From a virus (taxonomy: Duplodnaviria; Heunggongvirae; Uroviricota; Caudoviricetes), in IMG/VR virus record IMGVR_UViG_3300018432_000003, positions 1 through 19,393 of that record: 19,393 nt of DNA, one strand, 5' to 3'. The translations under genes and the position numbers were made by a program. Under the pieces are notes generated by a model that saw only the letters and a list, made by a program, of their open reading frames with translations, was not told the DNA's origin and did no database searches. This document shows, one piece after another, positions 15,093 through 18,369 of the stretch; position 1 is the first letter of the stretch; each line of letters opens with the position of its first letter.

Positions 15093-15133
15093 ATACACCT
15101 CGAAAACTGAATGATAGTATTGAACAATGAAAG

Positions 15134-15208
15134 TTGCACCGGAAGGAATCGAACCTTCGACATTGTGGTTCAAAGCCACAACACCAATGCCAGCATAGTA
15201 ACAGTGCA
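15134..15208 (-). tRNA. tRNA-Gln(TTG)
   Basis: Acceptor TGCACTG/CGGTGCA, anticodon arm TGTGG-CTTTGAA-CCACA, T-loop TTCGATT; no CCA. Confidence 0.9.
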
Positions 15209-15213
15209 ATGCG

Positions 15214-15581
15214 GATTATACTTGGGTATAGGCGGGGTTCTGTATTAACCTAGCATCCATCTGAGCCTCTACCCGTTTCCTATGTAGGCCATTTTCTTGG
15301 GCAAGAAAACGGTCGCATACAGGAAACTGTTTGAGTTGCACACGCCGGAGATTGCCTGCGTCATGGTATTACCCACAACCCTGCCCTTGTTCGGTGCGCT
15401 TGGCACCATCTCGGCTGGACAGCTTTCAGTAAGTGCCTACCTTACCTTCTCTCTGTTGCTCTTATCGTCTACAGCCATCACTGACTGCATCCCCACCTTA
15501 TTAGGGTGAGCGGTTTTAGTGTGCCCCGACCTTCCTCGATAGGGGAAAGTCCCTACCGCGCTAGGAGAGCCAAGTATAATC
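15214..15581 (-). ncRNA. rnpB: RNase P RNA (bacterial type-A-like, lacking P18 and P19)
   Basis: 12-bp P1 (15570-15581/15214-15225). P2 CCTAGCG/TGCTAGG. P3 hairpin. P4 pseudoknot GAGGAAGGTCGGGGC ... ACAGAACCCCGCCTA with the bulged U. P5 CACAC/GTGTG. P8; P9 with GUGA loop. CR-II GCAACAGAGAG. P12 then TGAAAG. P13 GGTGC/GCACC. P14 with GTAA. GCAGGCAATCTCC. P15 CTC/GAG with L15 AAACA/GGGTA. P16/P17. AGATGGATG before P2. Confidence 0.92.
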
Positions 15582-16193: not shown

Positions 16194-16265
16194 TGTGGCT
16201 TACGGGAATCGAACCCGTCTTTCAGCGTTGGCAACGCCACGTAATAGCCGATATACCAAAGCCAC
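16194..16265 (-). tRNA. tRNA-Gly(GCC)
   Basis: Acceptor GTGGCTT/AAGCCAC, anticodon loop TTGCCAA with a weak stem (two G-U pairs), TTCGATT; A73; no CCA. Confidence 0.85.
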
Positions 16266-16268
16266 ATA

Positions 16269-16517
16269 TTACCAGAACTTCCACCAAGGTGTGGTCGCTT
16301 CCTTCCACAACCTCTCTGCAAGTCGTCTTGTGTCGTCATACTCAATGAATGAGTAGTAGGGTCGTTCCCCTTCCCATCCTTGCCGGAAGAACACTCGTAT
16401 GTGGTCGCCCCTGTCCTCTGACCCGTCCATGTGCATGTACATCATGCGGTGCCAGTTCAGGACCTCGATGCGCCCATACTTTTCGAGTGTATCCTTATGT
16501 AAGTCTACGTACCACAT
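16269..16517 (-). CDS. Hypothetical protein (82 aa, aromatic-rich)
   Basis: Exactly fills the Arg(CCT)-Gly(GCC) spacer; ATG 2 nt after the tRNA discriminator. Confidence 0.7.
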   Translation of the reverse strand: MWYVDLHKDTLEKYGRIEVLNWHRMMYMHMDGSEDRGDHIRVFFRQGWEGERPYYSFIEYDDTRRLAERLWKEATTPWWKFW

Positions 16518-16519
16518 AG

Positions 16520-16593
16520 CCTTCCTAGTAGGAGTCGAACCTACGGCCTACCGCTTAGGAGGCGGTCGCTCTGTCCATCTGAGCTATAGGAAG
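16520..16593 (-). tRNA. tRNA-Arg(CCT)
   Basis: Acceptor CTTCCTA/TAGGAAG, D stem GCTC/GAGC, anticodon arm ACCGC-CTCCTAA-GCGGT, TTCGACT; G73; no CCA. Confidence 0.93.
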
Positions 16594-16881
16594 TCACTTG
16601 TGCGTGAACATGCTCTCAAGGATTTGGTACCAACCCTCGTCGCTCTGTATCACGTCTTGCTGTATTAGGACGGGGTACTCGGTCAGTACTATGACCCAAC
16701 GTAGAGTCTGCATGTCTTTCCAACTCCATCGTATGTGCCAACCCTTATACTTCTCGGGGATGATGTAGTCCAACCAGCTTGCACCCTCTGGGAGTTCTTC
16801 CTTCCACTCAGGCTTAGGCCAGCGACGGTACTCGTCCTCTGGGAACTCAATTACCACTATGTCGTCTGTTATCTCTATCAT
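16594..16881 (-). CDS. Hypothetical protein (95 aa, Trp-rich)
   Basis: Start revised to ATG 16881 (MIEITDDIVVIEF...), since the track start is inside tRNA-Arg(TCT). Stop abuts tRNA-Arg(CCT) with a 0-nt gap. Confidence 0.7.
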   Translation of the reverse strand: MIEITDDIVVIEFPEDEYRRWPKPEWKEELPEGASWLDYIIPEKYKGWHIRWSWKDMQTLRWVIVLTEYPVLIQQDVIQSDEGWYQILESMFTHK

Positions 16882-16883
16882 AG

Positions 16884-16956
16884 CACGCCCCGTAGGAATC
16901 GAACCCACATAATCCAGCTTAGAAGGCTGGCGCATTCTCCGTTCTGCCAGAGGCGC
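16884..16956 (-). tRNA. tRNA-Arg(TCT)
   Basis: Acceptor GCGCCTC/GGGGCGT, anticodon arm CCAGC-CTTCTAA-GCTGG, TTCGATT; G73; no CCA. Confidence 0.92.
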
Positions 16957-16959
16957 ATG

Positions 16960-17121
16960 TTATCTACAGCAGCAACACTTGCACTTGCAAGTACTGTTTG
17001 CTTCCTCTACTTCTTTCGGTGTGACGACCCTGCCGCACGATAGGCACTTCAATTCAAGAATTGCCTCAGCGCCAGTTCGTCCCTTGGTCACCATCTCCAC
17101 ATTGTCATGTTTGCAACTCAT
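16960..17121 (-). CDS. Cys-rich small protein, 53 aa (not in ORF track)
   Basis: MSCKHDNVEMVTKGRTGAEAILELKCLSCGRVVTPKEVEEANSTCKCKCCCCR. ATGA-coupled to the upstream gene; stop 3 nt before the tRNA. Confidence 0.7.
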   Translation of the reverse strand: MSCKHDNVEMVTKGRTGAEAILELKCLSCGRVVTPKEVEEANSTCKCKCCCCR

Positions 17122-17348
17122 ACTTGGAGTATCACTTGATACTTCTGCCGTATGAACTGGACTTGCACTGCAAGCTCGATGTTGTTGTCCTCGATTTTAC
17201 CTACAGTCCAACTAGGTCCGAACATCTCTGACAGTGTGCGTATCGCCTTAGTCTGCTTATCCTGCCAGTCAACTTCATTCTTAGGGAAGAAGCTGTACGG
17301 TATGCGTACAATCCTACTGTCGAATACGCTTATTGTCGTGTTATCCAC
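17118..17348 (-). CDS. Hypothetical protein (76 aa)
   Basis: GTG start overlaps the upstream stop by 8 nt; the TGA is coupled to the next ATG. Confidence 0.65.
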   Translation of the reverse strand: MDNTTISVFDSRIVRIPYSFFPKNEVDWQDKQTKAIRTLSEMFGPSWTVGKIEDNNIELAVQVQFIRQKYQVILQV

Positions 17349-17514
17349 GTGCTCTCAGCACCGCCTTAACCCAAGCTATCGGAACGTACCATCCTTCACC
17401 ACGCACATGGTAGCTGTCGGGTTTCCTGTTCAGCAGACCCAACGCCCTAAGTGCGGTACACACATAGTGGTACTTGTGTCCTCTGAATCTCGCGTCCTCC
17501 GGTATACGCATCAT
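17341..17514 (-). CDS. Hypothetical basic protein, 57 aa (not in ORF track)
   Basis: MMRIPEDARFRGHKYHYVCTALRALGLLNRKPDSYHVRGEGWYVPIAWVKAVLRARG; ATG 2 nt after the tRNA-Arg(ACG) discriminator. Confidence 0.65.
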   Translation of the reverse strand: MMRIPEDARFRGHKYHYVCTALRALGLLNRKPDSYHVRGEGWYVPIAWVKAVLRARG

Positions 17515-17516
17515 AG

Positions 17517-17588
17517 CCTGTCTCCCAGGAATCGAACCCGGATTTGAGCGTTCGTAGCGCCCCGCACTCTCCGTTGTACTAGAGACAG
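17517..17588 (-). tRNA. tRNA-Arg(ACG)
   Basis: Acceptor CTGTCTC/GAGACAG, anticodon arm GGGCG-CTACGAA-CGCTC, TTCGATT; G73; no CCA. Confidence 0.92.
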
Positions 17589-17592
17589 ATTG

Positions 17593-17778
17593 TTATAGAG
17601 GGTTGACAATGACCCTCACTTTCTGTTCATCGTACACCTGACCGTCCTCATCCTTTATCGTCTGAACTGCGTTGGCGTCCAAGCTGTCCAGAGCAAAGAG
17701 ATGGAGGGGCTTATGGTTGTCGATGTACACCGTAAGGTTTCCATTATAGTGCCGCTCTATTTCTATTATGTGGTCCAT
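17593..17778 (-). CDS. Hypothetical protein (61 aa)
   Basis: Fills the Lys(CTT)-Arg(ACG) spacer; ATG 2 nt after the discriminator. Confidence 0.65.
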   Translation of the reverse strand: MDHIIEIERHYNGNLTVYIDNHKPLHLFALDSLDANAVQTIKDEDGQVYDEQKVRVIVNPL

Positions 17779-17780
17779 AG

Positions 17781-17849
17781 TGAACTGCCAAGGAATCGAA
17801 CCTTGCCTCCTGAGATTAAGAGCCTCTGATGCGTGCCACCGCGCAGTCC
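17781..17849 (-). tRNA. tRNA-Lys(CTT), atypical (69 nt, shrunken D arm)
   Basis: Acceptor GGACTGC/GCAGTTC, T arm CAAGG-TTCGATT-CCTTG, anticodon GAGG-CTCTTAA-TCTC. D arm is only GCG-GTGGCA-CGC. Confidence 0.7.
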
Positions 17850-17852
17850 ATG

Positions 17853-18011
17853 TTATTGGTTCTGAAACTTCTCGTCGTCGAACGCCCTGTCCACTTGCTT
17901 GAGCAACTTGATTGCAGCCTCCACCATCGTCTTGACTGGCTCGCCGTAACCGTAGTGTTCACTGCTGTCCTGCTGTACTAGTTCAATTGCCTTCTCAATC
18001 TTTGTCTTGAT
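17853..18011 (-). CDS. Hypothetical protein, 52 aa, apparent ATC start (not in ORF track)
   Basis: AGGAGG, then 5 nt, then ATC AAG ACA AAG...: (M)KTKIEKAIELVQQDSSEHYGYGEPVKTMVEAAIKLLKQVDRAFDDEKFQNQ. An in-frame TAG lies just upstream; the ORF fills the spacer between the two Lys tRNAs. Confidence 0.55.
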   Translation of the reverse strand: MKTKIEKAIELVQQDSSEHYGYGEPVKTMVEAAIKLLKQVDRAFDDEKFQNQ

Positions 18012-18027
18012 GACTGCCTCCTATAAG

Positions 18028-18097
18028 AGAGCCGTGCAGGAGTCGAACCCGCCTTCTGAGATTAAAAGCCTCGTGAGGTCCACCAGACCGACGGCCC
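18028..18097 (-). tRNA. tRNA-Lys(TTT), atypical (70 nt, 5-nt D loop)
   Basis: Acceptor GGGCCGT/ACGGCTC, D arm GGTC-TGGTG-GACC, anticodon GAGG-CTTTTAA-TCTC, T arm GCGGG-TTCGACT-CCTGC; U73. Confidence 0.75.
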
Positions 18098-18100
18098 ATG

Positions 18101-18334
18101 TCAACCCTTCTTCTCCAACAACTGTATGTTGAACTTCTGGGTTTTGTTGTTGTAGAACGTGAACTGGCTTATGTCAGTGCCGTCCAACCCCATCTCGTCA
18201 ACTACGTCCGCAATCTCTCGCAGTATATCAGTGAATGCCTCCTTGCTGCCCTCGAAGTCTATCTTCCGGGTTATGGTGAACCCTTGCATGTAGAACGTCC
18301 GATTGCCTATGGGTGGAAGTTTTTCTTCACTCAT
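18101..18334 (-). CDS. Hypothetical protein (77 aa), probably leaderless
   Basis: Start revised to ATG 18334 (MSEEKLPPIG...); the track extension runs through two tRNAs. ATG lies 6 nt after the -10 box and there is no SD. Confidence 0.75.
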   Translation of the reverse strand: MSEEKLPPIGNRTFYMQGFTITRKIDFEGSKEAFTDILREIADVVDEMGLDGTDISQFTFYNNKTQKFNIQLLEKKG

Positions 18335-18340
18335 AACTAC

Positions 18341-18369
18341 ATTATACCATACTTTCAGTGGTTTGTCAA
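18341..18369 (-). promoter_or_regulatory. Consensus sigma70/SigA promoter with extended -10
   Basis: TTGACA (18369-18364), a 17-nt spacer ending TGG, then TATAAT (18346-18341): perfect -35, -10, spacing and TGn. Confidence 0.9.

Follow-up and report, generated by a model that had tools for sequence, protein, structure and literature searches.

How is a gene translated when its start codon follows so closely on the 3′ end of a transfer RNA (tRNA) that there is no room for a Shine-Dalgarno sequence (SD) between them? The question is raised by IMG/VR record IMGVR_UViG_3300018432_000003, an uncultured soil phage of ~ 96 kb (95,940 nt, 52% GC), the first 19,393 nt of which, hereafter the window, were the stretch under analysis. 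A total of 34 tRNA genes were identified genome-wide using ARAGORN, 13 of them in the window, all on the minus strand between positions 15133 and 22380, with small open reading frames (ORFs) wedged between them and a transfer-messenger RNA (tmRNA) encoded in the same array. Four of these ORFs start two nucleotides behind a tRNA, and the answer proposed here is that tRNA processing would itself make their messages, in near-leaderless form. The array was compared with two related contigs, L120 (1.5 kb) and L121 (8.7 kb, syntenic with the window, with 31 tRNAs in the same order). All features given below by window coordinates lie on the minus strand.

The original prediction placed ATG codons at positions 16517, 16881, 17514 and 17778, each exactly C-T past the discriminator base (N73) of a tRNA, and all of these coordinates hold. 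The Rfam tRNA model, which terminates at the discriminator, was used for placing N73 at 16520, 16884 and 17517, while N73 of tRNA-Lys(CTT) (17781) was placed from acceptor pairing (7/7 pairs). The tRNAs concerned are tRNA-Lys(CTT) (17779–17849; found by ARAGORN, without an Rfam report at gathering score; C74-T75 trailer at 17780–17779), tRNA-Arg(ACG) (17515–17588; ARAGORN, Rfam and acceptor pairing; C-T at 17516–17515), tRNA-Arg(TCT) (16882–16956; ARAGORN, Rfam and acceptor pairing; C-T at 16883–16882) and tRNA-Arg(CCT) (16518–16593; Rfam 67 bits and acceptor pairing; C-T at 16519–16518). At all four junctions the minus strand reads N73-C-T-A-T-G, with the A of ATG at position 76. The ATGs open frames of 61 (ORF C, 17593–17778), 57 (ORF D, 17341–17514), 95 (ORF G, 16594–16881) and 82 codons (ORF H, 16269–16517), which occupy the whole gap up to the next tRNA or the next ORF. 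Even before the long open frames behind these ATGs are counted, the chance of finding an ATG at that one position in at least 4 of 34 tRNAs is low (P = 0.0015–0.0023).

Stop codons are placed just as tightly. Six ORFs had been said to end 0–4 nt before the first nucleotide (+1) of a tRNA, and this was confirmed for A, B, C, F, G and H: the spacer is CAT behind ORFs A, B and F, CAAT behind ORF C and TAT behind ORF H, and there is none behind ORF G, whose TGA abuts +1 of tRNA-Arg(CCT). ORFs C, F and H each end in TAA, ahead of tRNA-Arg(ACG), tRNA-Arg(TCT) and tRNA-Gly(GCC), respectively; the last of these (16194–16265; ARAGORN, Rfam and acceptor pairing) is the next tRNA after ORF H. Three further ORFs (u4, I and J) borrow their stop codon from within the following tRNA.

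The exact spacing of 2 nt, which had been read as putting the A of ATG in the place of A76, is accounted for by a trailer that is invariant across the genome. C-T follows N73 in 31 of 34 tRNAs (N74 is C in 33/34 and N75 is T in 31/34), and in 28 of the 31 tRNAs of L121. N76 itself is variable (T 16, A 11, C 5, G 2) and can be T, C, G or A in tRNAs without an ORF behind them; because this position is free, the A of ATG lying on it carries no visible meaning, and mimicry of A76 was rejected. On the other side of the tRNAs, 5′ leaders carry T at −1 in 23 of 34 cases and often read (A)CAT or AAT, so that stop codon and leader run together as TAA-CAT or TGA-CAT. Flanking sequences are constant from one tRNA unit to the next, and the space left between two units is exactly the space that the ORFs occupy. 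As in punctuation of the mitochondrial type, coding regions are directly flanked by tRNA genes of the same strand, and L121 is built likewise.

Plotting the first ORF after each tRNA by its start offset separates two classes. In the window, four starts at +3 (flush, without SD) contrast with SD-led starts at +13, +17, +17, +24 and +35; in L121, four starts at +3 and two at +4 (flush, without SD) contrast with SD-led starts at +14, +15, +21 and +21. No start was found between +5 and +12 after a tRNA in either the window or L121. A start served by its own promoter, described below, lies at +43 in the window and +37 in L121. SD-led starts are each preceded by an SD of the AGGAG, AGGAGG or AAAGGA type outside the tRNA, and the SDs that the phage uses occupy +3 to +9, ahead of starts no nearer than +13. 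Flush starts are ATG in 11 of 11 cases, and the first 30 nt of these 11 ORFs (39% GC) fold weakly, with a mean minimum free energy of −1.4 kcal/mol against −3.9 kcal/mol in internal windows (p = 3e-4). Leaderless initiation strongly prefers AUG (PMC8459731), and both this preference and the accessible start region of bacterial leaderless mRNAs are found at the flush starts.

Behind tRNA-Arg(TCT), the sequence G-CT-ATG is kept in all three phages (window, L120 and L121) and heads the orthologue of ORF G, while the acceptor stem is not the same in the L120 and L121 counterparts of this tRNA and tRNA identity is 64%. ORF G is a real gene: an exhaustive HMMER search retrieved homologues on L120 and L121 (P0008, 52% identity, E 5.7e-15, and P0009, 41% identity, E 1.9e-10), both aligned from residue 1; the ratio of non-synonymous to synonymous substitution rates (dN/dS) is 0.29, which indicates purifying selection; the codon score is 0.34; and in the AF2 model (pLDDT 68) residues 1–70 are folded. 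Behind tRNA-Arg(ACG), which is 57% identical between window and L121, G-CT-ATG again stands in both phages. The slot that holds ORF D in the window is taken in L121 by the orthologue of ORF E, starting at the flush ATG, and D is missing; this orthologue has 74% identity to ORF E, is aligned from residue 1 and has a dN/dS of 0.07. At the other two junctions the arrangement differs, tRNA-Arg(CCT) of L121 being followed by CTT-ATG and an unrelated 44-aa ORF, and tRNA-Lys(CTT), 100% identical in L121, having no ORF behind it there (the junction reads CT-TAC-tRNA). The 2-nt spacing, whose conservation had been named as a check, is thus kept at tRNA-Arg(TCT) in L120 and L121 and at tRNA-Arg(ACG) in L121, and not at tRNA-Arg(CCT) or tRNA-Lys(CTT).

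L121 also has flush genes of its own, namely a 62-aa ORF behind tRNA-Met and a 218-aa ORF behind tRNA-Gln(CTG), the latter a member of DUF6065 (Pfam E 1.9e-43). Conversely, L121 lacks ORFs B, C, D, F and H; its tRNAs stand 5–9 nt apart in these places, with CT and leader retained in the spacers. Across orthologous pairs, dN/dS ranges from 0.07 to 0.29 and pS from 0.44 to 0.86, so that synonymous sites are near saturation. Given that the tRNAs have diverged, that synonymous sites are close to saturated and that one ORF has been swapped for another (D versus E), the CT-ATG junction is, on the sequences compared, retained while almost everything around it changes, and it is used by real genes.

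A layout kept in a relative with other genes suggests that tRNA excision probably releases messages ready to be translated. We propose that long precursors, transcribed from five tandem upstream promoters and one internal promoter, cover the 34 tRNAs together with the small genes between them. Two marks flank each tRNA, namely a short 5′ leader, usually with a terminal U, and C74-U75, which is invariant, on the 3′ side. RNase P (the host’s, one built on the phage’s own RNA, or both) would cut at every tRNA +1 and so terminate the upstream message 0–4 nt past its stop codon; the cut at the 5′ end of tRNA-Gly(GCC), for instance, would close the message of ORF H. A 3′ endonuclease, either RNase Z acting after N73 or an actinobacterial activity acting after C74, would free the tRNA for CCA completion and leave a downstream RNA beginning 5′-P-(C)U-AUG, and this near-leaderless end would serve SD-independent initiation of the leaderless type. 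ORFs would abut CU because CU is required by the tRNA, and a longer leader could do no more than weaken initiation. Of this model, we infer that tRNAs and ORFs are co-transcribed, where the cuts fall and how initiation proceeds. That tRNA 3′ processing yields near-leaderless mRNAs in a mitochondria-like manner seems to us reasonably probable.

Transcription across the array is consistent with such precursors. Five TTGACA-17-TATAAT promoters, each matching at 12/12 positions, lie in tandem just upstream of the array (genome 22525–23683, minus strand; locus L272). Motif scans returned no terminator-like sites on the minus strand from 24000 down to 14900 and no promoter-like sites in or near the four focal tRNAs, which together with the upstream promoters makes it likely that tRNAs and ORFs are co-transcribed. 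At least 13 perfect TTGACA-17-TATAAT promoters are present genome-wide.

The internal promoter belongs to ORF A (18101–18334; promoter and ORF together 18101–18369). Its TTGACA-17-TATAAT sequence (18369–18341, 12/12 match) ends 6 nt before the ATG, and both the promoter and this distance are conserved in L121, where ORF A is 73% identical (dN/dS 0.28). Similar layouts precede a 139-aa gene at genome position 62575 and a 48-aa ORF at 44220, with no alternative in-frame start nearby. Because a promoter positioned to start transcription on the ATG is conserved, the phage appears to use promoter-born leaderless messages, the predicted ORF A mRNA being one example. A TATAAT box also lies 6 nt before +1 of two tRNAs, tRNA-Gln(TTG) and tRNA-Cys (intervals 15133–15215 of the window and 20732–20746 of the genome, respectively, minus strand), the former box being kept in L121; on that spacing, these two tRNAs could be made with a mature 5′ end, without RNase P.

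Candidates for the processing activities can be named at both ends of the tRNA. A class A-like RNase P RNA is encoded by the phage itself (15214–15577; cmscan against RF00010: 76.6 bits, E 1.5e-23, below the gathering score), with a homologous stretch at the same place in L121, and it is a candidate for the activity that would cut each message at its 3′ end. In E. coli, the L15 GGU of RNase P pairs with C74 and C75. The phage RNA retains L15 GGU, and we entertain the idea that C74-U75 could therefore dock on it as C-G plus U·G. At the 3′ end, RNase Z cleaves CCA-less precursors directly after N73 (PMC8549757), which would leave CU-AUG, while in the Actinomycetota S. coelicolor and P. acnes precursors are cut endonucleolytically between C74 and C75 (PMC4681348, PMC3848588), which would leave U-AUG. 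Leaderless translation needs a 5′ phosphate (PMC9031893), and cuts of the RNase Z type leave one.

Several features point to an actinobacterial host. TerL is closest to actinophage terminases, at < 30% identity. In a scan covering one genome per prokaryote species, the CR-I/CR-V variant of the phage RNase P RNA occurred only in Actinomycetota, nearly all of them Acidimicrobiia, among the 80 matches listed (L122–L201), and may serve as a lead to the host or to a gene donor. Sampling of 39 distinct tRNA genes from three Acidimicrobiia genomes (L242–L271) revealed C74 in 38/39 and a full CCA in 18/39; C74 is thus preserved also where CCA is not encoded, in line with the cleavage behind C74 that has been reported for Streptomyces and P. 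acnes.

The prediction of tRNA punctuation is thus partly borne out, in that the anatomy fits and is conserved, flush starts are ATG in 11/11 cases, motif scans gave no promoter inside the four tRNAs and no terminator between the genes, and a promoter positioned to start transcription on an ATG is itself conserved; a leader of 1–2 nt does not fit, and the dependence of translation on tRNA processing stays a prediction. Several points weigh against the proposed processing. Cleavage behind N73 would put 2 nt in front of the AUG and cleavage behind C74 would put 1 nt there, and each extra base approximately halves leaderless initiation in Caulobacter, while a single base inhibits it in E. coli (PMC8459731). 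The 0-nt leader of a bacterial leaderless mRNA is not reached at either known cut site and would arise only if an unknown activity cut after U75; hence our term near-leaderless. The folding test of the start region discriminates weakly, since low structure near starts is a general property of genes. An actinobacterial host, with Acidimicrobiia as the lead, is only suggested by TerL, the RNase P RNA and tRNA 3′ ends. The remaining adverse points bear on two other explanations and are taken up with them.

The first of these explanations is translation from an unprocessed or partly unfolded precursor, in which purines in the 3′ strand of the T stem and acceptor would act as an SD, or initiation would proceed independently of an SD on an A/U-rich start; in that case, processing and translation would be in competition. 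The strongest anti-SD pairings ahead of the four ATGs amount to −4.2, −5.0, −6.9 and −2.1 kcal/mol at a spacing of 4–6 nt, comparable to those of the accepted SD-led ORFs I and J (−4.6 kcal/mol). The 3′ strands of the four flush tRNAs are also more SD-like than those of the other 30 (mean −4.6 versus −1.4 kcal/mol, p = 0.005), and the enrichment stays nominally significant when pooled over the three phages (p = 0.011), but it is not replicated in L121 alone (p = 0.28). Moreover, the Lys(CTT) junction is essentially without SD-like pairing, and in L121 such pairing amounts to 0 kcal/mol at both orthologous junctions, Arg(ACG) and Arg(TCT), where CT-ATG is nevertheless kept. The SD-like purines, present at 3/4 junctions, lie in acceptor and T stems, and positions −14 to −3 are mostly paired in predicted precursors (P(unpaired) 0.09–0.25); the statement that these purines are buried in the tRNA therefore agrees with predicted pairing, but leaves out that they are mildly enriched in the tRNAs next to flush ORFs in this phage. 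In addition, the 30S subunit would presumably find its space taken by a tRNA folded only 2 nt upstream, and the SDs in actual use lie outside the tRNAs, as described above. Taking both sides together, we consider translation from the precursor unlikely, if still a serious contender.

The second explanation makes the junctions a by-product of compaction, in which small ORFs come and go like cassettes while the tRNA flanks stay fixed; ORFs C, D and H would be expressed poorly or not at all, and nothing would be coupled to processing. The absence of B, C, D, F and H from L121, where bare spacers keep CT and leader, counts in its favour. Conservation of the four focal ORFs, expected by the original prediction, was found for G, whereas C, D and H are without a homologue in any search made. 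For H and D there was no tblastn match among GenBank phages, a word-indexed homologue search with G and H returned only the query itself, and none of ten array ORFs had a match in Pfam or PHROGs. ESM models of C, D and H are of low confidence, with ESM Atlas look-alikes below 0.9 (D exactly 0.90). Codon scores of D (0.07) and H (0.08) are borderline, exceeding 97% of spurious ORFs and falling in the lowest 8% of true-gene windows. On the other hand, none of the 71 spurious ORFs of comparable length reaches the score of ORF C (0.26), each of the four focal ORFs lies in the best of the six possible frames, and ORF J is 83% conserved yet scores below D and H, so that a gene may well have a low codon score. 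An empty range of 5–12 nt, exclusive use of ATG and retention of CT-ATG upon ORF exchange are not expected from compaction alone, and the flush genes that have relatives or a family are clearly real, namely G and the L121 orthologue of E, both under purifying selection, and the L121 DUF6065 gene. An origin in compaction alone is, in our judgement, improbable.

A third explanation, that each tRNA gene conceals a promoter with its transcription start on the A of the ATG behind it, giving primary leaderless transcripts, has a precedent in the TATAAT boxes of this phage 6 nt before the ORF A start and before tRNA-Gln(TTG) and tRNA-Cys, but was rejected as highly improbable on the negative promoter scan and on positions −12 to −7, which read ACTAGG, ACGGGG, TGGGAG and TGGCAG, none of them of the TANNNT type.

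Processing of the tRNAs into near-leaderless messages therefore remains the reading we prefer, with one correction. Not all of the released messages would be monocistronic, as had been supposed, since the overlapping ORFs D, E and F make up a single unit from tRNA-Arg(ACG) to tRNA-Arg(TCT): D, whose flush start reads ATG-ATG, overlaps by 8 nt with ORF E (17118–17348, GTG start), which in turn overlaps the Cys-rich, 53-aa ORF F (16960–17121).

A far more ambitious version would have the whole lineage run a complete mitochondria-like punctuation system in a bacterium. Here the phage’s own RNase P ribozyme and C74-U75 would jointly drive excision of the 34 tRNAs, C74-U75 would dock on L15 GGU as CCA does, though not itself a CCA, excision would be an obligatory step both ending and starting the messages of the interspersed genes, and the tmRNA of the array would rescue ribosomes on messages whose stop codon had been cut off (u4, I and J). 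Taken jointly, this set of propositions strikes us as doubtful.

Several neighbouring elements of the array deserve separate mention. ORF F ends in a Cys/Lys run with CxxC pairs and has a codon score of −0.24 (non-coding); it may not be a gene. ORF B (17853–18011) has the highest codon score of the array ORFs (0.48) and no ATG, GTG or TTG near its 5′ end; an ATC located 5 nt past a perfect AGGAGG suggests a non-canonical ATC start. Two short aberrant tRNA-Lys genes (17781–18097; L121:4385-4533), not reported by Rfam at gathering score, are 99–100% identical between the phages, where neighbouring tRNAs are only 57–93% identical and synonymous sites are saturated. Between tRNA-Met(CAT) and tRNA-Gln(CTG) lie tiny ORFs with strong SDs (genome 20480–20582, minus strand; L121:1285-1352) that end in Trp-stop (MTRRFW in this phage, (M)IKRSW and MTRRCW in L121) and could be a conserved leader-peptide or arrest-peptide device.

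Searches for further relatives were largely negative. Alignment of the array to GenBank phages using blastn matched only tRNAs, and two metagenome scans yielded no relatives. IMG/VR scans with G, the beta-helix protein, TerL, ORF J, a tRNA-Arg 20-mer and a tRNA-Lys 31-mer retrieved only a 6-kb TerL fragment (L001), which comes from the same metagenome as L121. Two records reached via the 1068-aa protein (L002 and L003) were set aside as distant (TerL 24% identity for L002), and one from an IMG/VR scan for the RNase P motif (L004) was discarded because it carries a high-GC RNase P of the cellular type. Scanning IMG/VR for a T-arm followed by 11 nt and CTATG produced > 115 single matches, of which 41% opened at least 30 codons compared to 33% of control ATGs; with ORF lengths barely above control, most of these matches are attributable to chance and are uninformative either way. 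Within the genome, a flush ORF behind the tRNA-like end of a large non-coding RNA (31056) was rejected as a further example, as it has an ordinary SD.

The closest known counterpart is the tRNA punctuation of mitochondria, reportedly described by Ojala, Montoya and Attardi in 1981 (with a companion paper, Montoya et al. 1981, cited in PMC4633059). In both systems coding regions are butted against tRNAs in a polycistronic unit, starts lie at or within a few bases of a tRNA 3′ end and stops at the next tRNA or within it, mRNA ends are presumably made by RNase P and a 3′ endonuclease, and translation would be leaderless. Unlike its mitochondrial counterpart, the present system belongs to a bacterial virus using bacterial ribosomes and is predicted from sequence; only some of its array genes are flush while others keep canonical SDs; an invariant C74-U75 stands between tRNA and AUG; and stop codons are complete, so that no polyadenylation is needed.

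Promoter-born leaderless mRNAs, such as that of lambda cI and about a quarter of mycobacterial mRNAs (PMC4633059, PMC9031893, PMC8459731), share with the flush genes the lack of an SD, the AUG start, an unstructured 5′ region and the need for a 5′ phosphate, but here the 5′ end would come from RNA processing, with 1–2 extra bases and a monophosphate. In the mixed tRNA-mRNA operons of E. coli (secG-leuU, metT), tRNA and mRNA are likewise co-transcribed and separated by RNase P, but the mRNA keeps an ordinary leader and SD, and excision of the tRNA creates no translation start (PMC2241853). The one previous proposal known to us in which an endonucleolytic cut just upstream of AUG makes bacterial leaderless messages concerns MazF of E. 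coli (Vesper et al. 2011, reviewed in PMC9031893). The MazF system is a toxin-driven stress response with no link to tRNA processing, and the result was not reproducible in other laboratories (PMC9031893). No description of tRNA-punctuated leaderless messages in phages or bacteria was found in the literature searched. What sets the present case apart is the invariant U75 between C74 and AUG, a junction that, on the sequences compared, outlives exchange of both tRNA sequence and ORF, a clean bimodal distribution of start offsets and a lead to an Acidimicrobiia host.

Gene calls provided by JGI for L121 omit the 218-aa DUF6065 gene (L121:1427-2083) and begin the ORF E orthologue (L121:4614-4847) at its second ATG; starts directly behind a tRNA are evidently not handled well by gene callers. 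As flush genes are missed or given a wrong start in this way, tRNA arrays of large phages are probably under-annotated. To our knowledge, RNA processing that defines translation starts has until now been established only for organelles. If the reading preferred here is true, a class of phage genes would have its translation starts set by RNA processing and not by a promoter or a ribosome-binding site. How early accessory genes are expressed would then be linked to the tRNA-maturation capacity of the infected cell, which could act as a timing or dosage device.

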